Assembly: GCA_009785175.1 (NCBI GenBank)
Contig: WQWV01000002.1
Span: forward strand, 22,749-86,748
DNA: 64,000 nucleotides
Source of the DNA: Alphaproteobacteria bacterium
GTDB taxonomy: Bacteria > Pseudomonadota > Alphaproteobacteria > Rs-D84 > CACZYB01
Direction: 5' to 3'
In this document: positions 10,846-54,631 of the stretch, piece by piece
Layout of the letters: each line of letters begins with the position of its first letter
Position numbering within the stretch: position 1 is the stretch's first letter
Made by a program: the position numbers and the translations under genes
The notes under the pieces: model-generated
The model's database searches: none
Told to the model about the DNA's origin: nothing
The model's input: the letters and a program-made list of their open reading frames with translations, nothing else

Positions 10846-11115
10846 ATGAAATATGTAGAAAAAGAATCTACGCTTGCCAAAACCTTGTGCGTAAATTGTG
10901 AAAACTGTAAAAGCGATCCATGGTGCTTAACATACGATTGTTATGACAAAACCGGCAAAACCCCTCCCCCACCAAAAGGTAATTACACTGTCGGCATTAC
11001 CAACAGAACAGGCGATGAGCGTTATATCGATGGGAGCGTAGCGAAATGCGAAGCATTCATGCGGAGCACACAATCCCTTATACAACGTTCCAAGGGCTAT
11101 GGCTACGGAGCTTAA
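10846..11115 (+). CDS. small Cys-rich protein (89 aa, 8 Cys), hypothetical; GC-poor
   Basis: MKYVEKESTLAKTLCVNCENCKSDPWCLTYDCYDK...; GAAAGGG SD; no signal peptide. Confidence 0.4.
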   Translation: MKYVEKESTLAKTLCVNCENCKSDPWCLTYDCYDKTGKTPPPPKGNYTVGITNRTGDERYIDGSVAKCEAFMRSTQSLIQRSKGYGYGA

Positions 11116-11117
11116 AA

Positions 11118-11657
11118 ATGAAAATAGGCGGACGCGAAAATAAAAAGCACAAGATCGGATTGACCGTCCTTCGCGGTCAGCCGTTCCATATCGGACACGA
11201 CTCGCTTTTGCGTCGTATGTTGTCCGAGTGCGATATCGTCGTGGCTATGCTTGGAAGCGCGCAGGAGGCCCGCACCGCGGACAATCCCTTCACGGTCGCC
11301 GAGCGTATGAACATGATCGCTCCTTGGTTCGAAACTAACATCGCAAACGGAACGCTTTGCCTTGGCGCGATAGACGACCTTGGCAACGCGAAACTTTGGG
11401 CGGGATATGTCCTTGCGAAAGTTTGGAAAGATTTCGGCCTTGAGGCCACCGCATACTATTCCGGCGCAGAGAGGGACAGCGAGCTTTTCGCGGACGCCGG
11501 CATGGCGATCGAAAACCTTGACCGCAAGATCATTCCGATCTCTGCCTCAAAGATCCGTGCCGGTTTGCGAGCCGGGGACGAGGCCGTCCTTGAATTCATA
11601 TTCCCGTCGAACAGAGCGATCGTAAAACGAATTTTAACCAACCAAAACACACACTAA
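11118..11657 (+). CDS. nadM: nicotinamide/nicotinate mononucleotide adenylyltransferase, NadM-like cytidylyltransferase
   Basis: 179 aa; (H/T)xGH motif GQPFHIGH, C-terminal ISASKIR (SxTxIR-like) motif of nucleotidyltransferase superfamily. Confidence 0.7.
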   Translation: MKIGGRENKKHKIGLTVLRGQPFHIGHDSLLRRMLSECDIVVAMLGSAQEARTADNPFTVAERMNMIAPWFETNIANGTLCLGAIDDLGNAKLWAGYVLAKVWKDFGLEATAYYSGAERDSELFADAGMAIENLDRKIIPISASKIRAGLRAGDEAVLEFIFPSNRAIVKRILTNQNTH

Positions 11658-11674
11658 ACAAAAGGAAAAACAAA

Positions 11675-13168
11675 ATGAAAAACGTAAACAAAAATACCCC
11701 CCCCCATAACAAATTCTGGTGCGACCTTTATCACCTTACAATGGCGCAGGCCATGTTCCTTGAGGGAACGCACAACGACCCCGAAACCCAGGAGATGTTC
11801 ATTCGCAAGAACCCCTTCAAGGGAGAGTTCACCGTCGTAGCAGGTCTTGCACCTGTGATAGAATGGATCGCCCAATACGGATTTTCGGACGACCAGCTTG
11901 CCTATCTTGCCAGTTTGAAAAACACCAACGGCACGCCCAGGTTCAAGCCGGAATTCCTAGAGCTCCTTAAAAACGAACCGCTACAAATAACCATAGACGC
12001 CATGCCCGAGGGAGAAATAGTATTCCCCAACGAACCCATCGTGCGGATTTCCGGGCCGGCATGGCAGGTAAACCTTGTCGAATCGGCGTTCCTTCAATCC
12101 ATAAACTCGGCATCGCTTATCGCCACAAAGGCCGCGCGCATAAAGGGCGCCGACGAAGGAAAAATCTTCGCCGAGTTCGGACTGCGCCGCGCCCAAAACC
12201 CCATGATGGCATCACGTAGCGCTATCATCGGCGGGTTCAACTCGACCTCGAACGTAGACGCAGGTTTCCAATACGGAATCCCCGTGTCCGGAACCCACGC
12301 GCACAGCTTTATCATGCGTAAAAAGACCGAGCAGGCCGCTTTCGAATCATGGCTTAAACACAATCCAGACAACGCCATGGTGCTGATCGACACATACGAC
12401 ACGATCAACGGGATCAAGCTTGCCATCGAGGCGTCGAAAAAGACCGGTGTGCCGTTGATGGGAGTGCGACTTGACTCGGGCGACCTTGCGGCGCTTTCGA
12501 TCGAGGTTAGGCAGCTACTTGACGCCGCCGGCATGAAGACCACCAAGATCGTGGCAAGCAACGACTTGAACGAATACAAGATCACCGAACTTAAAAAACG
12601 CGGAGCCAAAATCGACTTCTATGGCGTAGGCACCGACGTCGCGACCGGCGGCGACCAGCCCGCGCTTGGCGGAGTATACAAGCTCAAGAAAACCCAAGAC
12701 GGCAAGGTCATAAAATGCTCGGAAGACCCGATCAAAACAACTATACCCGGAGCCACGGAAACTATCCGAATCCTTAGCGAAACCGGCAACTTCAAGCGCG
12801 ACGTCATCACGACCCTAGGGTTCGTGGCGGCAAATGCGGGACGCCTTAGCAAAGACATGAACGGATCAAATATGGACGGATCCTTCGCATGGCCGTATAC
12901 AAAGGGCGAGCGGTTCTATAAACCGATGAGACGAATGGTAAGCCGAGGCAAGGTCAACCCGACGGCAACCAAGCGTTCGGTCATGGAGATCGCCGCGGAC
13001 GCCAAGGCAAACCTTGCAAAACTCGATGCCTCGCACAAGCGCATAACCGTTCCCGCCAAATATCCATATGAAGGCGAATATCCGACAGCCTATCCGGTCG
13101 ACGTCGAAATCGGTCTTTTCAAAGAGCGTAGACGCATGATCGAACAAGCAAAACAGAAACAAAAATAA
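11675..13168 (+). CDS. pncB: nicotinate phosphoribosyltransferase (type II PRTase; could alternatively be nicotinamide PRTase)
   Basis: 497 aa; N-terminal DLYHLTM motif of NAPRT/NAMPT family; adjacent pncA favours nicotinate specificity; C9 tract in codons 8-10. Confidence 0.7.
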   Translation: MKNVNKNTPPHNKFWCDLYHLTMAQAMFLEGTHNDPETQEMFIRKNPFKGEFTVVAGLAPVIEWIAQYGFSDDQLAYLASLKNTNGTPRFKPEFLELLKNEPLQITIDAMPEGEIVFPNEPIVRISGPAWQVNLVESAFLQSINSASLIATKAARIKGADEGKIFAEFGLRRAQNPMMASRSAIIGGFNSTSNVDAGFQYGIPVSGTHAHSFIMRKKTEQAAFESWLKHNPDNAMVLIDTYDTINGIKLAIEASKKTGVPLMGVRLDSGDLAALSIEVRQLLDAAGMKTTKIVASNDLNEYKITELKKRGAKIDFYGVGTDVATGGDQPALGGVYKLKKTQDGKVIKCSEDPIKTTIPGATETIRILSETGNFKRDVITTLGFVAANAGRLSKDMNGSNMDGSFAWPYTKGERFYKPMRRMVSRGKVNPTATKRSVMEIAADAKANLAKLDASHKRITVPAKYPYEGEYPTAYPVDVEIGLFKERRRMIEQAKQKQK

Positions 13169-13189
13169 AGAAAGAAAAAGGTGAATATT

Positions 13190-13918
13190 ATGAAAGCATT
13201 ATTTGCAAACAACACAAACGATACTAACAACGAAAAAGACTGGCTGTTCACGCATATCGAGGGTCAAAACGACTTCATGAAGGCCAAGGGCGTGCTTGGA
13301 AGCCAGGGGGCCGAGGATCTGATCGAACCCACCAACCGCTTTGTCCGCGAAGGTGTCAGAAGGAAGGCGTTCGGGCATATACTTACCACCGGCGATTACC
13401 ACGTCGAGGAGGAATACCTTGCTTGCACCTATTCCCCCGAGGGAGCGACGTATCCCCACCACTGCGGACCCGGAACGTGGGGCTTTGAATACGCCATAGA
13501 CTTTCCGGCCAAAGGTCCAATGCGCACCCAGCTTTGGAAAAAGGATACGAGCATGTGGCACAACTCTGCGACAATCAACGGCAAGCCCGCGAATGTCGAG
13601 GCGCGCTTCCCCAAACAAAAGTGGAAGATCGTAATGGGCGGCGTGTGCACCGACATCTGCGTCGAGCTTGCGTTCGAACAATTCCTTGTCCGCGGATACG
13701 AAGTCGTAATCCTTACCGATCTTGTCAAAGGATACCAGAAGGAAATCGCGCAGGTTGTAGCCGAAGGCGGCGTGATACCCGGCGGATACCAGAAATACAT
13801 CGCGACCGGACAGCTGCGCCTTATGACGTCCGAGCAGTTCATCGCCGAGAACGCGAAGGTAGCAGAAGCGGGAAACGCCAAGGTTGGCGCAATACGCGAT
13901 GCAAGGGCCGGGAGATAG
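13190..13918 (+). CDS. pncA: nicotinamidase / isochorismatase-family cysteine hydrolase
   Basis: GVCTDICV catalytic-Cys motif, D and K of triad present; ATG 13190 preceded by AAGGTG. Confidence 0.7.
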   Translation: MKALFANNTNDTNNEKDWLFTHIEGQNDFMKAKGVLGSQGAEDLIEPTNRFVREGVRRKAFGHILTTGDYHVEEEYLACTYSPEGATYPHHCGPGTWGFEYAIDFPAKGPMRTQLWKKDTSMWHNSATINGKPANVEARFPKQKWKIVMGGVCTDICVELAFEQFLVRGYEVVILTDLVKGYQKEIAQVVAEGGVIPGGYQKYIATGQLRLMTSEQFIAENAKVAEAGNAKVGAIRDARAGR

Positions 13919-13965
13919 CGCGCCAAAACATGGGGAGGATCGTTGGTTTCCTCCCCTGAAATATA

Positions 13966-13993
13966 TTGACAAAAGATATTTTGTGGTTAATAT
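13966..13993 (+). promoter_or_regulatory. promoter TTGACA-N16-TAATAT with palindrome ACAAAAGATATTTTGT (candidate NrtR operator) upstream of nadE-nudix-nrtR
   Basis: 14/16 palindrome overlapping -35/spacer. Confidence 0.35.
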
Positions 13994-14015
13994 TAACAAA
14001 ATAGGAAAAACTGAA

Positions 14016-15467
14016 ATGTTGGATAAAAATAAGATTGTGATCGCCCAGCTTAACCCCATTGTCGGGGACATAAAGGACAATGCACGAAAAATCATAGAAG
14101 CATACCGTGCGGCGGCGGACGGGACGGATTTAATCATCACTCCCGCCGACGCGTTGACCGGCGCGCCGCTTGGCGACCTTGCGGGAAACCAGGATTTTCT
14201 TGTTGAGGTCGAGCGCGAAATGGCGCTTCTTGCAGGCAAGATTGGGAAAGCGCCGATTGTAGTTTCGATAGGCGGCAACATCTATCTTATCCAAAACGGC
14301 AAGGTCGAGATGGGGAACGATTTCGTCCTTGGCAAAACCAATGTCCGTGTCGCGTCGAATGGCACGAACGTGCCCATCTGGAATCCGGGAATCTATATAT
14401 CGCTTGATACTATCCCGTTTAGAATCGGGCGGGCCGAGGAGCGTGAAAAGCTTGCCCGGGACGCGTCAAAAACACAGGACGTGATCTGGGTCAACCGAGT
14501 CGGAGCAGAGGGAGAGCATATCTTCGACGGCGGAAGCTTTGCGATCGCAAAGGGCGGGGAAAAAATCTTCCAGATGCCGCGATGGATAGAGGGCGTGCAA
14601 ACGGTTGTAAAACAAAACTCCCTGCCCGCACAGGAATCCGAAATCTCGGAAATGTATAACGCCGCCGTGCTGGGCCTTAGCGACTACTATGTCAAGAACG
14701 GCTTCTTCAAGGGCGTGCTTTTGGGAATGTCGGGCGGGCTTGATTCCGCGCTTGTGTTCGCAATCGCCGCAGCCGCAATCGGTGCGAAGGCCGTGCGTCC
14801 CGTCGCAATGCCGTCAAAATACACGACGGGGGCAAGCAACTCCTTAGCGGAGGAAATGTGCAAGAACTATGGCGTGGAATTACAGGTCGAACCGATAGAG
14901 CACATGGTCGAACCTTTCCGTAAAACGCTTGATCCGAAACGCAGTATCACCGACGAGAACCTTCAGGCGCGCGTGCGCGGAATGCTTTTGATGGGAATAT
15001 CGAACGAGGAGGATCGGCTTTTGCTTTCCACATCGAACAAATCCGAAGTTGCGGTCGGCTATGGCACGCTTTACGGCGACATGTGCGGCGGATACAACCC
15101 CATCAAGGACATCTATAAAACCGATGCCTTCGAAATGTGCCGGCATATAAACAAGCAGGCCGGTCGCGAGATGATACCCGCCGAAATAATCAACCGCGCG
15201 CCGTCGGCGGAACTTAGCGCAGGGCAGAAGGACAGCGACTCGCTTCCGCCGTATCCCGTGCTTGACCATATAATAAAATCGCTTGTCGAGGACGGGTTGC
15301 CGGTCGATAAGATAGACGCAGACCGAGCCACTGTCCTTAGGGTCGCAAAAATGATCCAAAATGCCGAGTTCAAGCGGAGCCAAGCTTGTATCGGGCCCTC
15401 TATTTCCAAACGAGCGTTCGCCGATACCAACATGCCTGTGTTAAATAAATTCGAGAGGCAGAGATGA
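14016..15467 (+). CDS. nadE: glutamine-dependent NAD+ synthetase (N-terminal nitrilase/CN-hydrolase domain + NAD synthetase domain)
   Basis: C-terminal domain has SGGLDS PP-loop; N-terminal carbon-nitrogen hydrolase domain; 483 aa from ATG 14016. Confidence 0.85.
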   Translation: MLDKNKIVIAQLNPIVGDIKDNARKIIEAYRAAADGTDLIITPADALTGAPLGDLAGNQDFLVEVEREMALLAGKIGKAPIVVSIGGNIYLIQNGKVEMGNDFVLGKTNVRVASNGTNVPIWNPGIYISLDTIPFRIGRAEEREKLARDASKTQDVIWVNRVGAEGEHIFDGGSFAIAKGGEKIFQMPRWIEGVQTVVKQNSLPAQESEISEMYNAAVLGLSDYYVKNGFFKGVLLGMSGGLDSALVFAIAAAAIGAKAVRPVAMPSKYTTGASNSLAEEMCKNYGVELQVEPIEHMVEPFRKTLDPKRSITDENLQARVRGMLLMGISNEEDRLLLSTSNKSEVAVGYGTLYGDMCGGYNPIKDIYKTDAFEMCRHINKQAGREMIPAEIINRAPSAELSAGQKDSDSLPPYPVLDHIIKSLVEDGLPVDKIDADRATVLRVAKMIQNAEFKRSQACIGPSISKRAFADTNMPVLNKFERQR

Positions 15468-16069
15468 TAAAATTTCCAATGATCAACCGCCCACGAACCG
15501 TGATCCCGGACGATGCAAAACTTGTATACGACTCGGGCAGTATTTTGAAAACATACGAGTATGAGCAGGCGCAATTCGACGGGACGGCACGCAAATACGC
15601 GCTTGGCTGGCTTCGCGATTCCGCGTTTTGTATTCCGGTCAAAAACGAACGCTCCGTAATAATGCTTGAGCAGGAACAGGCCGGAGCCGCCGCCCCATTC
15701 TATGGTTTGCCCGGCGGATTCGTCGACGACGGAGAAGAACACGAGGGTGCGGCAAAACGCGAACTTGTCGAAGAGACCGGACACAAAAGCGACACCTTGA
15801 TCCACTTCATCGAACACAACAAATCGGATAAGATCGCTAATACCGAAAGCATATTCATAGCATACGACTGCGAGCGTGTAGGCGCGCAAAAACTCGACGC
15901 CGCGGAAAAAATAAAGGCTTTCGAAATCTCTATCCGCGAATTTATATGCGACATGCTTGTCCACCCCGATTTCCGCGAGAAATGGATCATGCAATATCTT
16001 GCCTTGCGATTTTCACGAAAAAAGCTTATAAATATATTAAAGGAAAACAAGTTCACAAAACAGAGGTAG
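15464..16069 (+). CDS. Nudix hydrolase (probable ADP-ribose pyrophosphatase)
   Basis: canonical Nudix box GGFVDDGEEHEGAAKRELVEETGH; overlaps nadE stop. Confidence 0.75.
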   Translation: MIKFPMINRPRTVIPDDAKLVYDSGSILKTYEYEQAQFDGTARKYALGWLRDSAFCIPVKNERSVIMLEQEQAGAAAPFYGLPGGFVDDGEEHEGAAKRELVEETGHKSDTLIHFIEHNKSDKIANTESIFIAYDCERVGAQKLDAAEKIKAFEISIREFICDMLVHPDFREKWIMQYLALRFSRKKLINILKENKFTKQR

Positions 16070-16074
16070 GAGAT

Positions 16075-16824
16075 ATGGCAACTATATACAAATCCGAAGG
16101 CGAATTTTTGGCCGCGTATGACGCGAACGCCTTCGACCGACCTTCCGCCACCTCGGATGTGCTTATATTTTCCGTATCGTCCTCAGAAGGCGAGAACTGG
16201 CGACGCGCCGCCAAAAAGGCGTTCAGCGTATTGCTTGTAAAACGCGACGACTATCCGTTTTTGGGCAAATGGAACCTGCCGGGCGGATTCGTAAAAATCG
16301 ATGAAACATCGGCCAACGCGGCTATGAGAATTTTGAAGAACGAAACCGGAGTTGCCGATAAAATCCACCTCGAGCAGCTATACACTTTCGATACGCCAAA
16401 CCGCGATCCGCGAACACGCGTGATTTCCATCGCGCACATGGCGCTTGTCGACAAGGCCCTGCTTCACTATGCCGCCGAGCGCGTCGCGAAATGGTTCGAT
16501 GTCGAGATGAAGGACGGGCGACTTTCGCTTTGTTCGGACGGGGAGTGTTTGTCGGGCGGCGACCTTGCCTTCGACCATGCCGAGATAATCAAAACCGGCG
16601 TGCTTCGCATGCGCGGGAAAATCGAATACACCGACATAGTTTTCGACATGATGCCCGCCGAATTCACGCTTGGCGAACTGCAACAGGTATACGAGGCCGT
16701 GTTGGATCGGAAACTTCTGCCCGCCGCTTTCCGCCGTGTGATCGCGGACAAGGTCGAGGCGACCGGCGGAATGCAGACCGGTTTGGGGCACCGCCCGTCG
16801 GCGCTTTTCAGATACAAAAGATAA
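16075..16824 (+). CDS. nrtR: NrtR-type Nudix-related transcriptional regulator of NAD metabolism (degenerate Nudix domain + C-terminal winged helix)
   Basis: 249 aa; degenerate Nudix signature GGFVKIDETSANAAMRILKNETGV; C-terminal ~100 aa basic domain; located inside NAD salvage cluster; AGGAGA SD. Confidence 0.65.
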   Translation: MATIYKSEGEFLAAYDANAFDRPSATSDVLIFSVSSSEGENWRRAAKKAFSVLLVKRDDYPFLGKWNLPGGFVKIDETSANAAMRILKNETGVADKIHLEQLYTFDTPNRDPRTRVISIAHMALVDKALLHYAAERVAKWFDVEMKDGRLSLCSDGECLSGGDLAFDHAEIIKTGVLRMRGKIEYTDIVFDMMPAEFTLGELQQVYEAVLDRKLLPAAFRRVIADKVEATGGMQTGLGHRPSALFRYKR

Positions 16825-16893: not shown

Positions 16894-16970
16894 CGCGGGA
16901 TAGAGCAGCCTGGTAGCTCGCAAGGCTCATAACCTTGAGGTCATTGGTTCAAATCCAATTCCCGCAACCA
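16894..16970 (+). tRNA. tRNA-Met (anticodon CAT), initiator-like (C1:A72 mismatch, sequence close to fMet tRNA)
   Basis: cloverleaf: acceptor CGCGGGA/TCCCGCA with C1-A72, D arm GAGC-AGCCTGGTA-GCTC, anticodon loop CTCATAA, T arm, CCA encoded. Confidence 0.85.
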
Positions 16971-16985
16971 ATTCAAATAAAAAAT

Positions 16986-17006
16986 GCCCCCTAGTGGGGC
17001 GTTTTC
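16986..17006 (+). terminator. rho-independent terminator hairpin GCCCC-ctagt-GGGGC + T run after tRNA-Met
   Basis: perfect 5-bp GC stem followed by GTTTTCTT. Confidence 0.55.
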
Positions 17007-17130
17007 TTATTTGAAGTGATTATGGAACGGTTTTAACCAATGGAAAAATTGGTTCACCCGCGGGCAATAGGCGGAATAACGCCGGTTTGCGAAGCAAAAT
17101 TGCCAAGGGCCGTCGAGCGCAGCGAAGACG

Positions 17131-17150
17131 AAATCCAATTCCCGCAACCA
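17131..17150 (+). repeat. exact 20-nt direct repeat of tRNA-Met 3' end (AAATCCAATTCCCGCAACCA), 180 bp downstream of the gene
   Basis: identical to 16951-16970. Confidence 0.9.
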
Positions 17151-17185
17151 AAATAAATGAAACCGTCCCTTGGGGCGGTTTTTGC
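17150..17185 (+). repeat. direct repeat DR-left CAAAATAAatgaAACCGTCCcTTgGGGCGGTTTTT (hairpin + T run); partner at 17844-17877
   Basis: about 34 nt, 28 identical to 17844-17877; the pair flanks a single GC-poor reverse-strand ORF. Confidence 0.75.
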
Positions 17186-17245
17186 ATACCGGTGCTGGCT
17201 TACGCCAAGTTCAGGATTAAAAGTAGAAAAAATTGGTTTGAAGGC

Positions 17246-17707
17246 TTAGCTTTGAACCAACAACAACGGATAAGAAACAGGGGGATTAGAAAAATAAACG
17301 CGAACATCTCCTCCTTCTTCCATAAGTTCTATCATCTCGGCATTTCCTCTTTCGATAAGCTTAAAGCTAGGCTTGCCTAGATAATCGTGCTTGAATTTAG
17401 TGTAATCAGCAAGTGTGAAGTCGCAATCGCCAAGCTCTGGTCGGGTAATGTCCAGTTTCCTAATTTTCAATATATGCAGGATACCCGCTGGAGTATCCAG
17501 TGGCGGAATTTCATATACTTTGCCAGACGGGGTATCGTCTACTACGCGTCCGATAGAAGCGGCTTCGGCGTCCATATTTACATAAGAGGTTTCATCTTGT
17601 GCAAATATACAAACCCAGCTAAGAATTGCGTCGGGTTCTCCAACGGTTTTATCTTTCAAGGCTAGGCATTTCTTGACTATTTCTAAAATGAGCGGCTTTA
17701 GCTGCAT
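17246..17707 (-). CDS. hypothetical protein (153 aa), GC-poor, flanked by direct repeats
   Basis: ORF with AAGGAGATATGCCATG context; no recognisable motif. Confidence 0.45.
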   Translation of the reverse strand: MQLKPLILEIVKKCLALKDKTVGEPDAILSWVCIFAQDETSYVNMDAEAASIGRVVDDTPSGKVYEIPPLDTPAGILHILKIRKLDITRPELGDCDFTLADYTKFKHDYLGKPSFKLIERGNAEMIELMEEGGDVRVYFSNPPVSYPLLLVQS

Positions 17708-17843
17708 GGCATATCTCCTTCGTGGAATTATATAGTAATTATTTTACGAATCAATCAACTTCTCCCTAAAACCCCTAATCTCCCTCGCCAAACCCGCAAA
17801 CTCCGCGAAGTCAGCAGCTATGAACTTGCTTATTTCGCTCAAT

Positions 17844-17877
17844 CAAAATAAGCAAACCGTCCTTAGGGCGGTTTTTT
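17844..17877 (+). repeat. direct repeat DR-right CAAAATAAgcaAACCGTCCTTAGGGCGGTTTTTT
   Basis: see 17150-17185. Confidence 0.75.
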
Positions 17878-17885
17878 ATTGAAAC

Positions 17886-18356
17886 TTGGGCGATATATGG
17901 ATTAAGATTGACGTTATGACAATACGCCCAGCAATGCCCGCCGACATAGACTTCATCATTGAAGCAAACGTCGCGATCAACGAAATATCAGGCTCGACCG
18001 CTTTGGCCGGACTTCGCCAACGGCTGAACGCAGATATATTTTCGGACGAGCCAAAAGCCTATGTCATAATCGCCGAAATGGACGGACGGCCGGTTGGAAT
18101 GGCGCTTTACTCGTGGACATACTTCGCCAACGACGGGCGCATAATGTGGCTTTCCCAAGTTTACGTCAAGCCGGAATATCGACGCCACCGAGTCGCCTTC
18201 GCGCTTTTCCGCGAGTTGAAAAACGCTGCGGCGGCAGGAGGAGCGCACGCCATAGTCGGAGGCGTGGATTCGGAAAACTTGCGCGCTATGAAAGTATACA
18301 ATTTCATCGGAGCGCAGGCGCTTGATAAATACAAGCTTATGTGTTGCAAAATATAA
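17886..18356 (+). CDS. GNAT family N-acetyltransferase
   Basis: acetyl-CoA binding motif region …QVYVKPEYRRHRVAFALFREL…; 156 aa. Confidence 0.7.
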   Translation: MGDIWIKIDVMTIRPAMPADIDFIIEANVAINEISGSTALAGLRQRLNADIFSDEPKAYVIIAEMDGRPVGMALYSWTYFANDGRIMWLSQVYVKPEYRRHRVAFALFRELKNAAAAGGAHAIVGGVDSENLRAMKVYNFIGAQALDKYKLMCCKI

Positions 18357-18366
18357 AGGGTAAAAA

Positions 18367-18711
18367 ATGAAAAAGAACACCGATAAAAAACAAGGATTCA
18401 ACGGTTGGAACCTTAGGGACGAGCGCCTTATCGCAAATCTGATTTTACTTTCCAGCACCGAAAAATGCGCCGACAAAACGTTGCGCGGTTTTTTCCCCGA
18501 TGCCAAAACCGACTATGAAAAAACTCAAATCCTCAAGCGATATTACGAATTCAATATAGCGAGCGGAACGGGACACAAAGAGGACCATCATTATTACGGC
18601 CTTATCCTTGCCTATCTTTTATCCATGGTCCGAGATTTCGGCGTAAACTTTGTCATTAGACCCAAATATCGGGAAAGAGCCGACAAGGCTAAAAACGCAA
18701 AACAGAGATAG
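18367..18711 (+). CDS. hypothetical protein (114 aa)
   Basis: ORF with AGGGTAAAAA-ATG context; no motif. Confidence 0.4.
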   Translation: MKKNTDKKQGFNGWNLRDERLIANLILLSSTEKCADKTLRGFFPDAKTDYEKTQILKRYYEFNIASGTGHKEDHHYYGLILAYLLSMVRDFGVNFVIRPKYRERADKAKNAKQR

Positions 18712-18775: not shown

Positions 18776-19099
18776 ATGGACGAGGAACACACAAAACTTT
18801 GGGGCGCAATCGACAAGGTCGCAAACCGTTCGGGATTATCTACAAGCGCTTTGGCAAAAAGGTCGGGACTGGACGCAACATCTTTTAACAAAAGCAAAAG
18901 ATTTTATCCCTATGGAAAAAAACGATGGCCAACTATGGAGTCGATAAGCAAGGTGATCCTTAGCACCAATTCCGATTGGCACGAGTTTCTTGATATGCTC
19001 GAGGAATGCGAGACCGAAACGGCAGAAGCAGGAAAAGCCTCGGCACCCGGGGATTATCCGCTTCGCGGCGTCGAGATCAAGGGGAACAAGAAGGTTTAG
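18776..19099 (+). CDS. small helix-turn-helix (XRE-like) DNA-binding protein
   Basis: 107 aa; …GLSTSALAKRSGLDATSFNKSKR… HTH pattern; AGGAG 7 nt upstream. Confidence 0.55.
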   Translation: MDEEHTKLWGAIDKVANRSGLSTSALAKRSGLDATSFNKSKRFYPYGKKRWPTMESISKVILSTNSDWHEFLDMLEECETETAEAGKASAPGDYPLRGVEIKGNKKV

Positions 19100-19270: not shown

Positions 19271-19300
19271 GACTGGATACCGGTTCAAGCCCGGCATGAC
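19271..19300. repeat. R1 hairpin repeat copy (GACTGGATACCGGTTCAAGCCCGGCATGAC)
   Basis: family member. Confidence 0.8.
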
Positions 19301-26250: not shown

Positions 26251-26550
26251 AAATCTCCCCTTGTGGACAGCTGGACGAGGCAACGCCGAAGTGCCAGCAA
26301 GGTTCCATAAGGGGAGATTTGTGTTCAAGCGGCAAAGCCGCGCCTGCCCCCTTTAATAACAATGGTTTAATTTGCCCAAAAAAGCCAAGAGCAGTTGGCT
26401 TTTGTTAGGCGATGCTTGCATGGGCTCGCGGGGAATTTTTTCTATTGTCATTCCGGCCACCGGGCCGGAATCTAAGCCGACTGGATACCGGGTCGAGCCC
26501 GGTATGACAAGAGATTAAATCCCCCTTGGTGGTGCCTTGGGGGATTTTTG
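26251..26550. repeat. composite intergenic repeat block: R2 element (26251-26320), GCCAA hairpin/terminator (26385-26410), tandem hairpins incl. R1 copy (26449-26508), R2-mini hairpin (26515-26550)
   Basis: each sub-element has copies elsewhere in window. Confidence 0.8.
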
Positions 26551-35164: not shown

Positions 35165-36012
35165 TTTTCATTACCCCTACTGGATTCCGGGTCAAGCCCG
35201 GAATGACGAAAGGAGAGCCCCAAATCATACATCTCATTTTTATTAAGTCCAAATAAATCCGCGGCGGTGCTTGCGGCTTCCTTTAGCGGCAACGATTTAA
35301 GCAAGCGTTTCATTATCTTTGCGGCGTCCACGTTGTCGGCGGTCTTTTCCGCTGGCGCGATGAGGCCAACTATTTCGCCCTTCGGCGATTTGAAGTGCGC
35401 GGCGAGGTCGGAGGCGGTGCCGGACTGAACCTCCTCGTAGAGTTTCGTCATCTCGCGCGCGATTGTTATTTGCCGGTCGGGCATGATTTCCGCGATTGCT
35501 TTTAATGTAAGCGGCAGGCGAACGGCGGATTCGAAAAATATCACCGTGGCGTCGAGGTTGCTGTGCCGCTCAAAAAATTCCTTGCGCGCCTTGGCTTTTT
35601 CCGGGACAAAGCCTGCGAACAAGAAACAATCGCTTGGAAGGCCCGAGAGCACCAGCGCGTTGATGGCCGAGCATGCGCCGGGAACGGACGTGATGAAAAC
35701 TCCCTTGCGGCGCAATTCGCGCACAAGTTTGAATCCGGGATCGGAGATCAGCGGCGTGCCGGCGTCGCTTATCAACCCTATCCTTTTGCCGGAGGCTATA
35801 AGTCCCGCGATTTCGGCCGTCTTGCCCGCCTCGTTATGATCGTGCAAACTTATCAACTTGGATTTAATCCCAAGGTGGGAGAGAAGCTTGCCCGCAACGC
35901 GCGTATCCTCGGCCGCGATAAAATCCATGGCGCCAAGCGTTTCCACCGCCCGGCTTGAGATATCGCCAAGGTTGCCGATCGGCGTCGCAACTATGTAAAG
36001 TCCAGCTTGCAA
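35161..36012 (-). CDS. rsmI: 16S rRNA 2'-O-ribose C1402 methyltransferase RsmI (tetrapyrrole methylase fold); C-terminal ~15 aa are encoded by an R1 repeat
   Basis: LYIVATPIGNLGDIS…AEDTR N-terminus typical of RsmI; divergent from lpoA as in E. coli yraL/yraM. Confidence 0.85.
   Translation of the reverse strand: MQAGLYIVATPIGNLGDISSRAVETLGAMDFIAAEDTRVAGKLLSHLGIKSKLISLHDHNEAGKTAEIAGLIASGKRIGLISDAGTPLISDPGFKLVRELRRKGVFITSVPGACSAINALVLSGLPSDCFLFAGFVPEKAKARKEFFERHSNLDATVIFFESAVRLPLTLKAIAEIMPDRQITIAREMTKLYEEVQSGTASDLAAHFKSPKGEIVGLIAPAEKTADNVDAAKIMKRLLKSLPLKEAASTAADLFGLNKNEMYDLGLSFRHSGLDPESSRGNEK
35179..35207. repeat. R1 hairpin repeat copy inside 3' end of rsmI ORF
   Basis: ACTGGATTCCGGGTCAAGCCCGGAATGAC. 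Confidence 0.8.
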
Positions 36013-39406: not shown

Positions 39407-39435
39407 GTTATACTTCACTGGATACCGGGTCAAGC
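39407..39435. repeat. R1 hairpin repeat copy (ACTGGATACCGGGTCAAGCCCGGTATGAC)
   Basis: canonical copy, perfect 8-bp stem. Confidence 0.85.
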
Positions 39436-39463
39436 CCGGTATGACGAGGGAGCGGGCGGCAGG

Positions 39464-43712: not shown

Positions 43713-44632
43713 CCAAACTTCGCGCGATATTCATGGGCACGCCCGAGTTCGTGATTGGCTCGTTGGAATTGGTCGCGGCGGAATGCGAGCTTGTCGGCGT
43801 GTTCACAAAGGCGCCTGCACCCGTCGGACGCAAGCAGATTTTGACCCCCTCGCCGGTGGCGGTGTGGGCGGAGGCGAATGCGGCCGGCGTGCCGGTCATC
43901 ACTCCTCGTTCGCTTAGAAAGCAGCCGGAATTCGTTGAGGAGGTTCGGTCGCTCAAACCCGACATAATCATCGTGTTTGCGTATGGTTTGATTTTGCCGC
44001 AAAGTGTCCTTGATATCGCGCCGTGCGTTTGCGTGCACCCGTCCGCCCTGCCCCTTTACCGAGGAATGAATCCTATCGGCCGCGCGATTTGGAACGGTGA
44101 TTCTTTCACCGAGGTCGACCTGATCGCGATGGATGCCGGAGTAGATACGGGTGCGGTTTTGCTGCGTCGGCGGATTGAATTGAATCCTTCGATTACGCGC
44201 GGCGCGCTTGAGGAAATTGTTGCGGCGGAATCGGTTTCTGCCTTGCGCAAATACTTGGCTGCGCCGGCCGATTTTCCGCCCGTGGCGCAAGAAGGCGAGG
44301 CGTCGATGGCGGCCGCGTTTAGCGCGGAGGAATTGGCGATCGATTTTTCGCTTCCGGCGCGTGCGGTGTTGGCGCGAATCAACGCCCTGCTCCCGACCCC
44401 CGCGGGATATTTCGTCGCGAACGGAGAGAAGATAAAAATACACTCCGCCGTCATTCCGGCGAACGCCGGAATCCAGTCTATATATAAAAACTGGATACCG
44501 GGTCAAGCCCGGTATGACAACGGACGATTGTTCATAATGTGTAGCGATGATGTAATAGAAATCCTTCGGGCCCAGCGTCCGGGCGGAAAGATTTTGGCGG
44601 CGCGAGATTTCCTAAACGGGTTCAAGATATGA
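43709..44632 (+). CDS. fmt: methionyl-tRNA formyltransferase; carries in-frame R1 repeat insertion (codons for …KNWIPGQARYDNG…)
   Basis: N-terminal formyltransferase domain (HPSALPLYRG), C-terminal Fmt domain; R1 at 44490-44518. Confidence 0.85.
   Translation: MTKLRAIFMGTPEFVIGSLELVAAECELVGVFTKAPAPVGRKQILTPSPVAVWAEANAAGVPVITPRSLRKQPEFVEEVRSLKPDIIIVFAYGLILPQSVLDIAPCVCVHPSALPLYRGMNPIGRAIWNGDSFTEVDLIAMDAGVDTGAVLLRRRIELNPSITRGALEEIVAAESVSALRKYLAAPADFPPVAQEGEASMAAAFSAEELAIDFSLPARAVLARINALLPTPAGYFVANGEKIKIHSAVIPANAGIQSIYKNWIPGQARYDNGRLFIMCSDDVIEILRAQRPGGKILAARDFLNGFKI
44490..44518. repeat. R1 hairpin repeat copy inside fmt coding sequence, in frame
   Basis: ACTGGATACCGGGTCAAGCCCGGTATGAC. Confidence 0.85.
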
Positions 44633-54104: not shown

Positions 54105-54141
54105 GTCTTCACTACGCTTATAAATGCCGCTTCGTGAAGAC
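54105..54141 (+). repeat. hairpin A: 8-bp stem GTCTTCAC/GTGAAGAC, 21-nt loop TACGCTTATAAATGCCGCTTC, followed by T-rich run
   Basis: partner hairpin B at 54595-54631 has same loop, different but complementary stem. Confidence 0.8.
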
Positions 54142-54206: not shown

Positions 54207-54289
54207 GGGGGTGTGGCGGAATTGGTAGACGCGCTAGACTCAAAATCTGGTTGGAAACAGTGTGGGTTCGATTCCCACCGCCCCTACCA
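54207..54289 (+). tRNA. tRNA-Leu (anticodon CAA), type II with long variable arm
   Basis: GGGGGTG acceptor, TGGCGGAATTGGTAGAC D arm, anticodon loop CTCAAAA, long variable arm, GGGTTCGATTCCC T arm, CCA encoded. Confidence 0.85.
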
Positions 54290-54431
54290 AAAAGTTTTAT
54301 GCCCTTGCGGCATAGAAATTTTTTGGTGAGAGATGATGGAAAGAAGCCATAAAAGTGGGTTCGGAACAAGGCGAGAGGTGAGCGAAGCGAGCGAGCCGCA
54401 GTGAACGCGGAGGGCACAGCCCGAAGCGAAC

Positions 54432-54450
54432 ATTCCCACCGCCCCTACCA
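54432..54450 (+). repeat. exact 19-nt direct repeat of tRNA-Leu 3' end (ATTCCCACCGCCCCTACCA), 161 bp downstream
   Basis: identical to 54271-54289. Confidence 0.9.
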
Positions 54451-54594: not shown

Positions 54595-54631
54595 GTCCTA
54601 ACTACGTTTATAAATGCCGCTATGTTAGGAC
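54595..54631 (+). repeat. hairpin B: stem GTCCTAAC/GTTAGGAC, loop TACGTTTATAAATGCCGCTAT
   Basis: see hairpin A. Confidence 0.8.

Follow-up and report, generated by a model that had tools for sequence, protein, structure and literature searches.

In a 64,000-nucleotide stretch of contig WQWV01000002.1 from an uncultured alphaproteobacterium (the whole stretch is called the window here), the gene for the initiator tRNA-Met is followed by two further copies of its own 3' end. Together with the tRNA end itself, these copies delimit a 160-bp non-coding spacer (islet A) and a 650-bp segment (islet B) that holds a single open reading frame (ORF), ORF153. The reading that is best supported, and that we consider probable, is that the tRNA 3' end was the target of serial site-specific integration, which left behind recombinase-less remnants resembling cis-mobilizable elements (CIMEs). 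We favor this reading because the 3' ends of both tRNA genes of the window recur as exact direct copies of 20 nt and 19 nt, none of which is expected by chance; because the last copy at tRNA-Met is a degenerate tRNA end with a terminator and no plus-strand gene upstream; because ORF153 is compositionally foreign and its family patchy; and because one metagenome contig carries a comparable repeat where another, with the same flanking genes, has a single copy, against a base rate of three in 16 tRNA loci. As the neighboring ORFs have no recombinase domain, the units are best described as recombinase-less, CIME-like remnants.

Serial copies of the tRNA-Met 3' end and its terminator

The tRNA-Met locus contains the following features:

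16894..16970, plus strand: tRNA-Met(CAT) with initiator features (ARAGORN; Rfam tRNA model, 63.3 bits)
16951..16970, plus strand: repeat copy 1, tRNA positions 57-76, from the T loop's middle to CCA
16971..17130: islet A, between copies 1 and 2, 160 bp without a credible gene
stem 16981-17005: terminator T1, terminator-like on both strands in a terminator scan
16966..17021: imperfect palindrome with 26-nt arms, 77% complementary, which extends T1 and takes in the ACCA end of the tRNA
17048..17056, plus strand: T-arm 9-mer ATTGGTTCA, the T-stem 5' strand and first T-loop bases of tRNA-Met
17131..17150, plus strand: repeat copy 2, an exact 20-nt match to the tRNA-Met 3' end
17139..17183, plus strand: left copy of a 45-nt repeat, made up of the final 12 tRNA nucleotides and terminator T2
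17160-17183: terminator T2 hairpin, 24 nt, folding at -13.7 kcal/mol (plus strand) and -10.7 kcal/mol (minus strand)
17184..17833: islet B, 650 bp enclosed by the 45-nt repeat pair, with the lowest GC of the region
17246..17707, minus strand: ORF153, predicted YecM/VOC-fold protein of foreign composition
17727..17754, minus strand: promoter-like site of ORF153, TTGATT, a 16-nt spacer and TATAAT, matching at 10 of 12 positions
17834..17877, plus strand: copy 3, a decayed tRNA 3' end (TTCGCTCAATCA) and terminator T3
stem 17854-17874: terminator T3, -14.5 kcal/mol, z -3.8
candidate element-junction strings (junctions marked by slashes): GAAGACG/AAATCC...ACCA/ATTCAAAT and CTTAT/TTCCCGCAACCAAAATAA

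In the tRNA gene, C1 stands opposite A72 and an A11:T24 pair can be read from the sequence, which we take to be the marks of a bacterial initiator tRNA; ARAGORN and Rfam call only one other tRNA in the 64-kb window, a tRNA-Leu(CAA). An earlier account of this DNA, made from the letters alone (the sequence-only reading), had reported an exact 20-nt copy of the tRNA-Met 3' end, and this proved correct: AAATCCAATTCCCGCAACCA occurs twice in the 64 kb, at 16951-16970 and 17131-17150, in direct orientation and with a spacing of 180 nt, while the number expected from shuffled sequence is 0 and no further match exists in the 64 kb at up to three mismatches. The same account had described a direct repeat of 34 nt around the gene that follows. 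The repeat is real, with 0 expected, but its length had been underestimated, as the best local alignment, of 17139-17183 with 17834-17876, extends over 45 columns, 37 of them identical, and contains two 1-nt gaps. This alignment scored 27, compared with 11.0 +/- 1.4 (maximum 16) for shuffled queries. The repeat opens inside the tRNA-derived part (TTCCCGCAACCA in the left copy, TTCGCTCAATCA in the right) and continues through the terminator hairpin and its T run, so that the combination of tRNA 3' end and terminator is present at tRNA-Met in three nested serial copies, which delimit islets A and B.

All three terminators consist of a G+C-rich hairpin followed by a T run, as intrinsic terminators do. 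The terminator scan detected T1 and T3, and the folds of T2 and T3 each precede T runs; on the minus strand, the T2 hairpin likewise stands before a T-rich tail. No plus-strand gene that T3 could terminate was found upstream of it. A match of T3 to the Rfam Phe_leader family was set aside as terminator likeness only (25 bits, where the gathering score is 55).

Directly upstream of the tRNA lies a complete NAD-salvage cluster (nadD-like, pncB, pncA, nadE, NUDIX and the NrtR regulator; window positions ~11100-16824), which is kept in relatives, and the sequence after nrtR was different in each relative examined.

ORF153, islet B and the probable extent of acquired DNA

The sequence-only reading had placed a GC-poor reverse-strand gene between the repeat copies, and the composition of ORF153 agrees with this: its GC is 0.429 and its GC at third codon positions (GC3) 0.396, whereas its neighbors lie between 0.60 and 0.67 in GC3 (nrtR 0.664, mlaE 0.673, and 0.603 for the GNAT acetyltransferase gene beyond copy 3). 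In addition to the promoter-like site listed above, a Shine-Dalgarno-like AAGGAGA is found shortly upstream of its ATG, and T2 is likely to be its terminator.

The ORF153 family comprised 37 homologues of ~154 amino acids from bacteria and one archaeon, with no Pfam match, and its members, patchily distributed, sit in mutually unrelated contexts. One homologue shares a 10-kb locus with a gene of the phage-integrase family and has an AAA_13 protein immediately upstream, and the homologue on the archaeal contig is close to a TraC-like ATPase gene. On a related contig (L087, 3369-3931), a homologue that is 74% identical has a GC3 of 0.36, compared with ~0.6 around it; it follows argS and a YbaK-like gene, and its end lies 13 nt from a convergent tRNA-Leu(TAG). 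A tRNA-end repeat around this homologue was considered and rejected as not significant. ORF153 and the 107-amino-acid protein described below carry FWD15_ locus tags in NCBI. Neither ORF153 nor the small ORFs of the locus matched anything in the NCBIfam, PHROG (phage) or PADLOC (defense) libraries.

The AlphaFold2 model of ORF153 has a mean predicted local distance difference test score (pLDDT) of 92.9. A Foldseek search with this model returned Escherichia coli YecM (1k4n) as the top match (E 1.8e-5), with a template modeling (TM) score of 0.71 across the whole model and a sequence identity of 8%, followed by many enzymes of the VOC (glyoxalase/bleomycin-resistance/dioxygenase) fold. The modeled paired beta-alpha-beta-beta-beta modules, together with the similarity to solved members, place the protein in the VOC/YecM-like fold, although neither Pfam nor a comparison of the family profile with PDB sequences gave a link to VOC or YecM at the level of sequence.

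The sequence-only reading had likened this repeat-bounded gene to a gene cassette, and we therefore weighed whether ORF153 could be an integron-type cassette bounded by attC-like sites. Islet B does present one small ORF with a similar hairpin-containing repeat on either side. The VOC fold is common in the products of integron cassettes, and the fold matches to ORF153 include one cassette protein, far down the list at rank 14 and with a TM score of 0.22. The details of the locus are nevertheless at odds with it, as no GTTRRRY or RYYYAAC core motif occurs in 17101-17950 and there is no attC-like site, the repeats are 24-nt terminator hairpins after tRNA-derived sequence and not attC structures of 57-141 nt, ORF153 has a promoter-like site of its own, no intI, attI or integrase gene was found among the neighbors, and the unit is single and not part of an array. 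We consider the cassette explanation exceedingly improbable, and the likeness was not upheld.

Two side observations concern islet B. At 17231-17260 the T arm and 3' end of the tRNA recur in inverted and degenerate form (73% over 30 nt, with the exact 10-mer TTGGTTCAAA); this inverted copy overlaps the last codons of ORF153, and the C-terminus of ORF153 departs from its closest homologue exactly at this inverted copy (PLLLVQS as against PLQLDKVK). Near copy 3, two Logan contigs from two sequencing runs (L084 and L002) meet, one ending at 17842 and the other starting at 17813; their 30-nt overlap (17813-17842) lies one base to the left of copy 3 in its placement. These contig ends may mark a branch of the assembly graph, and so a strain variant at the boundary of islet B.

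Beyond copy 3, the following features precede mlaE:

17879-17908, plus strand: promoter-like site of the GNAT gene, directly after copy 3
17934-18356, plus strand: GNAT acetyltransferase (Pfam Acetyltransf_1, E 4.6e-15)
18367-18711, plus strand: hypothetical protein of 114 amino acids, GC3 0.50, no family match
18776-19099, plus strand: protein of 107 amino acids, GC3 0.54, no family match

The sequence-only reading had extended the island through these genes, which it called GC-poor. With a GC of 0.522 and a GC3 of 0.603, the GNAT gene is of native composition and does not fit that description, and only the two small genes have a mildly low GC3. All three lie outside the last repeat, the homologues of the 107-amino-acid protein are found in housekeeping settings, and the 114- and 107-amino-acid genes are probably native as well; the wider island is therefore not supported. 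The acquired DNA is limited to ~870 bp (16971-17833) and does not comprise the whole stretch up to mlaE.

The 107-amino-acid protein had also been called a helix-turn-helix (HTH) protein. None of the profile libraries searched called an HTH in it, and what speaks for that claim is indirect: its few homologues are either flanked by rpsA and gapR or immediately followed by a Peptidase_S24 fragment, and the latter holds for one of them. These contexts fit a putative small repressor-type DNA-binding domain, like the N-terminal domain of an S24-type repressor, in a housekeeping setting.

A tRNA-like fragment before mlaE (19272-19300), at first a candidate T-arm remnant, was rejected as one copy of a dispersed repeat. 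This hairpin repeat, ACTGGATACCGGGTCAAGCCCGGTATGAC, which resembles repetitive extragenic palindromic (REP) elements, has five copies (19272-19300, 26480-26509, 35179-35208, 39417-39446 and 44490-44519), two of which have an inverted partner (GTCATTCCGGC...GCCGGAATCCAG).

The tRNA-Leu locus, related contigs and the short spacers

The second tRNA of the window had been said to show the same pattern, and it does:

54207-54289, plus strand: tRNA-Leu(CAA) (ARAGORN, Rfam), followed by a terminator
54432-54450, plus strand: exact 19-nt copy of the tRNA-Leu 3' end, after a 142-nt spacer

The sequence ATTCCCACCGCCCCTACCA is found at 54271-54289 and again at 54432-54450, a spacing of 161 nt, with 0 expected by chance, and the best-supported reading is that tRNA-Leu carries a scar equivalent to that of tRNA-Met. 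The earlier proposal of integration scars at both tRNAs has thus gained from the exact, direct copies, from the third, decayed copy and from the foreign gene that is enclosed.

The two spacers of the window have a further feature in common, in that each contains a T-arm 9-mer identical to the 9 nt that stand before the repeat in its own tRNA. At tRNA-Met this is ATTGGTTCA, 74 nt upstream of copy 2, and at tRNA-Leu it is GTGGGTTCG (54355-54363), 68 nt upstream of the exact copy. Judged from the sequence, it looks as if in both cases a 28-nt fragment from the T arm to CCA had been split within the T loop. Purine-rich, T-poor stretches are located directly upstream of both displaced copies (17057-17130, with 8 T in 74 nt, and 54364-54431, with 2 T in 68 nt), and both contain GCGAAGC motifs; the second is the most T-depleted 68-nt stretch in the 64 kb. 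The entire tRNA-Leu module is flanked by two 37-nt hairpins (54105-54141 and 54595-54631, spaced by 490 nt) with nearly identical 21-nt loops (TACGYTTATAAATGCCGCT..) and with two fully compensatory changes in their stems (GTCTTCAC/GTGAAGAC as against GTCCTAAC/GTTAGGAC), a pair that suggests either a conserved structured site or a tRNA module that was itself inserted.

We found no syntenic relative of the tRNA-Met locus in a GTDB scan with MlaE, among NrtR relatives or by exact-protein look-ups, the last of which returned identical sequence only. The nearest GTDB representatives by MlaE (56-61% identity) have no tRNA-fMet nearby, and NrtR relatives at 70-75% identity retain the NAD-salvage operon, none of them with a tRNA downstream. 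A metagenome scan for the 20-mer yielded 19 loci, and most tRNA-fMet genes in them have a single copy with one terminator after it. The exception is the related contig L118 (2001-2240), where tRNA-fMet is followed by a 48-nt direct repeat that is 98% identical and consists of 15 tRNA nucleotides and most of a palindromic terminator, with an end-to-end spacing of 180 nt that is the same as at tRNA-Met of the window. The L118 insert of 132 nt is a strong palindrome (z -8.4) and begins on the left with the tRNA end in inverted orientation (93% complementary over 14 nt; duplex z -5.4).

A second contig, L111, has the same flanking genes as L118 (LpxK, DUF374, a 216-amino-acid ORF and a VirB4-like gene) at 70-77% identity and a single tRNA-end copy, and by this comparison of sequences acts as an empty site relative to the L118 insert. 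Among 16 distinct tRNA loci compared, a downstream copy of at least 12 nt within 3 kb was present at three, namely tRNA-Met and tRNA-Leu of the window and L118. We also observed that a VirB4/TrwK-like gene (phmmer E 4.7e-11) lies ~800 nt downstream in L118, and that the module of promoter, tRNA-fMet and terminator is inverted in L111 (3976-4160) with respect to L118 (1880-2240), relative to the flanks.

In contigs L107 and L116, tRNA-fMet is represented by its 3' half alone, which begins with the anticodon loop and carries the same 20-mer; these partial halves suggest that tRNA-fMet is used as an attachment site in nature. The fragment looks like the attachment-site copy of another element, and the two small ORFs beside it may be a pair of ribbon-helix-helix (RHH) antitoxin and ParE-like toxin. 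A viral source of the 20-mer was sought and rejected, as the sole match was an unrelated phage tRNA-Met gene.

The similar size of the units between tRNA-end copies raises the alternative that they are dedicated non-coding mini-elements of ~140-180 bp at tRNA 3' ends, each carrying sequence matched to its own tRNA, that consist of attachment sites only and are moved in trans by a recombinase whose gene lies elsewhere, or that resemble miniature inverted-repeat transposable elements (MITEs) in being palindromic. Three independent cases measure 160 bp (Met), 142 bp (Leu) and 165 bp (L118), the spacing of 180 nt is common to the window and L118, and the tRNA-matched 9-mers, the palindrome and inverted left end of the L118 insert and the empty site in L111 would all be accounted for. 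The two islets of the window, Met and Leu, are moreover alike from T1 to the 9-mer (z 3.97, 0 of 1000 shuffles). This likeness, however, may reflect only degenerate inverted tRNA-end copies around the terminator palindrome, and inverted-copy pairing was not significant in the islets of the window (z -1.2 and +1.6). The Met and L118 spacers cannot be aligned (z 0.67), and neither can the Met islet with the Leu islet over their ~70-nt cores (z -0.37, with dinucleotide content kept), the two islets share no significant motif beside the displaced copy, and no further copy of the islet module was found in the window, in 1.1 Mb of collected loci or in plasmid or phage collections. We regard such mini-elements as unlikely.

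A narrower version of this idea, which we hold to be decidedly unlikely, is that the Met, Leu and L118 units form a distinct minimal class of non-coding insertions that is specific for tRNA 3' ends and moved in trans. As sequence matched to its own tRNA, each would have either a T-arm 9-mer together with the end of 19-20 nt or an inverted copy able to fold back on that end, and transfer might possibly proceed through a folded single strand that mimics the T-arm/acceptor duplex of the tRNA gene. Were the uniform ~160-bp units dedicated mini-elements, poorly known Alphaproteobacteria would harbor a mobile unit of a new kind, non-coding and targeted to tRNA genes.

The inverted tRNA ends bear on a second alternative, in which no mobile element takes part and the copies arose locally during replication or repair, the palindromic terminator having provoked template switching or fold-back priming by which the tRNA end was duplicated first in inverted and then in direct orientation. 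Such switching yields inverted and direct copies around a hairpin, and at all three loci the terminator palindrome reaches the ACCA end and a degenerate inverted copy of the tRNA end is present. The sequence between the tRNA-end copies is not derived from neighboring sequence, however, islet B holds a complete foreign gene with a GC3 of 0.40, and two different tRNAs within 64 kb would require rare accidents to have happened repeatedly. We judge this origin to be quite improbable.

Finally, copy 2 and its spacer could be a functional RNA, either a tRNA-like minihelix or a small RNA with the acceptor/T-arm 3' strand and CCA at its end, processed or recognized like a tRNA. The exactness of copy 2 would fit this, the T-stem 5' strand upstream could close a T stem around a ~70-nt insert, and in L118 a 12-nt sequence, CGCGGGGATTGG, is a fusion of the 5' strands of the acceptor and the T stem and pairs with the copy. 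Against this, neither Rfam nor ARAGORN gave a signal at copy 2, even at E <= 1, and the covariance model and ARAGORN recognized the two true tRNAs only. Islet A likewise had no Rfam match at E <= 1 and none in plasmid or phage collections. The spacers of the window folded like shuffled sequence (z -0.06, -0.09, -0.23 and -1.2, with -0.06 and -0.23 for islet A), copy 2 paired with its spacer no better than shuffles did, and no promoter-like site was found on the plus strand between T1 and copy 2. A functional RNA is, in our estimation, very improbable.

Proposed order of integrations and comparison with known islands

The repeats, with their arrangement and significance, the foreign composition of ORF153 and the lack of a recombinase domain in the neighboring ORFs are observed directly, and we infer from there an order of events, a type of recombinase and a reduction of the elements by deletion, as follows. 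The segment 16971-17833 would have been left by at least two site-specific integrations at the initiator tRNA's 3' end, or by a single one if the element was already composite. By the known mechanism, an incoming element would bring its own copy of the tRNA 3' end, so that the gene stays intact, and every integration would shift the earlier 3' end and its terminator downstream. In copy 3 (17834-17877) we would accordingly see the original tRNA end and its native terminator, now decaying directly ahead of the promoter-like site of GNAT; copy 2 (17131-17183) would be the end delivered by the element that brought ORF153 in islet B; and copy 1 would be the end currently used, delivered by the last element, of which 160 bp are left as islet A. 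Both islets would have lost any recombinase, and deletion would have shrunk the elements. T2 is probably now a two-way terminator, serving both read-through from the tRNA and ORF153.

Islands at tRNA and tmRNA genes have been described, in outline, as leaving the gene restored, with the displaced 3' fragment marking their far end (PMC4383910). In Dehalococcoides, tandem islands are found at ssrA, and CIMEs and accretion at one attachment site have been invoked for them (PMC3146451); CIMEs are flanked by att sites, lack recombination and transfer genes, and were described for families of streptococcal integrative and conjugative elements (ICEs) (PMC3146451). The tandem ssrA islands are the closest described case for the tRNA-Met locus, which shares with them and with the islands catalogued in Islander an intact target, a 3' fragment in direct orientation downstream, serial repeats and foreign cargo. 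An intact tRNA with a displaced direct fragment is present at both tRNA-fMet, with its three copies, and tRNA-Leu; atypical and patchy cargo is represented by ORF153, a comparison that does not apply to the non-coding islet A; and an empty site in relatives is available for the L118 insert relative to L111 only. Unlike Islander-type islands, the locus has no integrase or integration module, its units measure 160 and 650 bp and not kilobases, one of the repeat pairs continues for ~33 nt beyond the tRNA and into the terminator, and the T-arm fragment is separate from the displaced copy. Like CIMEs, the islets are bounded by att-like direct repeats, contain no recombinase or transfer gene and stand in tandem at one site, whereas they differ from CIMEs in having no known cognate ICE or integrative and mobilizable element (IME), islet A being geneless in addition. 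As in integron cassettes, islet B is a single small ORF between hairpin-forming repeats, but these derive from a tRNA end and a terminator and have no attC architecture.

Several observations weigh against serial integration. No recombinase domain was detected by Pfam in ORFs between or adjoining the repeats at either tRNA, and a tblastn search of the window with one tyrosine integrase, a weak test, returned nothing below E 2.8. No empty site was found for the tRNA-Met locus of the window itself, for which the searches returned no syntenic relative. The L118 insert and the two short islets of the window (islet A and the one at tRNA-Leu) all measure ~140-165 bp and the 180-nt spacing recurs in window and L118, and random deletion would not be expected to give islets of such uniform size. 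The T-arm 9-mers lie 68-74 nt upstream of the copies, where a simple attL/attR geometry predicts contiguity, and copy 2 is still exact without obvious selection. The identity of the 45-nt and 48-nt repeats, which continues ~33 nt past the tRNA end, exceeds typical attP/attB blocks.

Serial integration into the tRNA 3' end remains, with these points counted, the explanation that we consider probable. As read here, the footprint is of the ordinary kind left by mobile DNA inserting into tRNA genes, with a few odd details, and is a new instance of a well-known feature. The GNAT gene and the two small genes that follow it are returned to the native genome. The locus provides a small, clean example of how tRNA genes gather layers of mobile-DNA scars, and of how one foreign gene, equipped with a promoter of its own and borrowing a two-way terminator, can outlast the vehicle that brought it.

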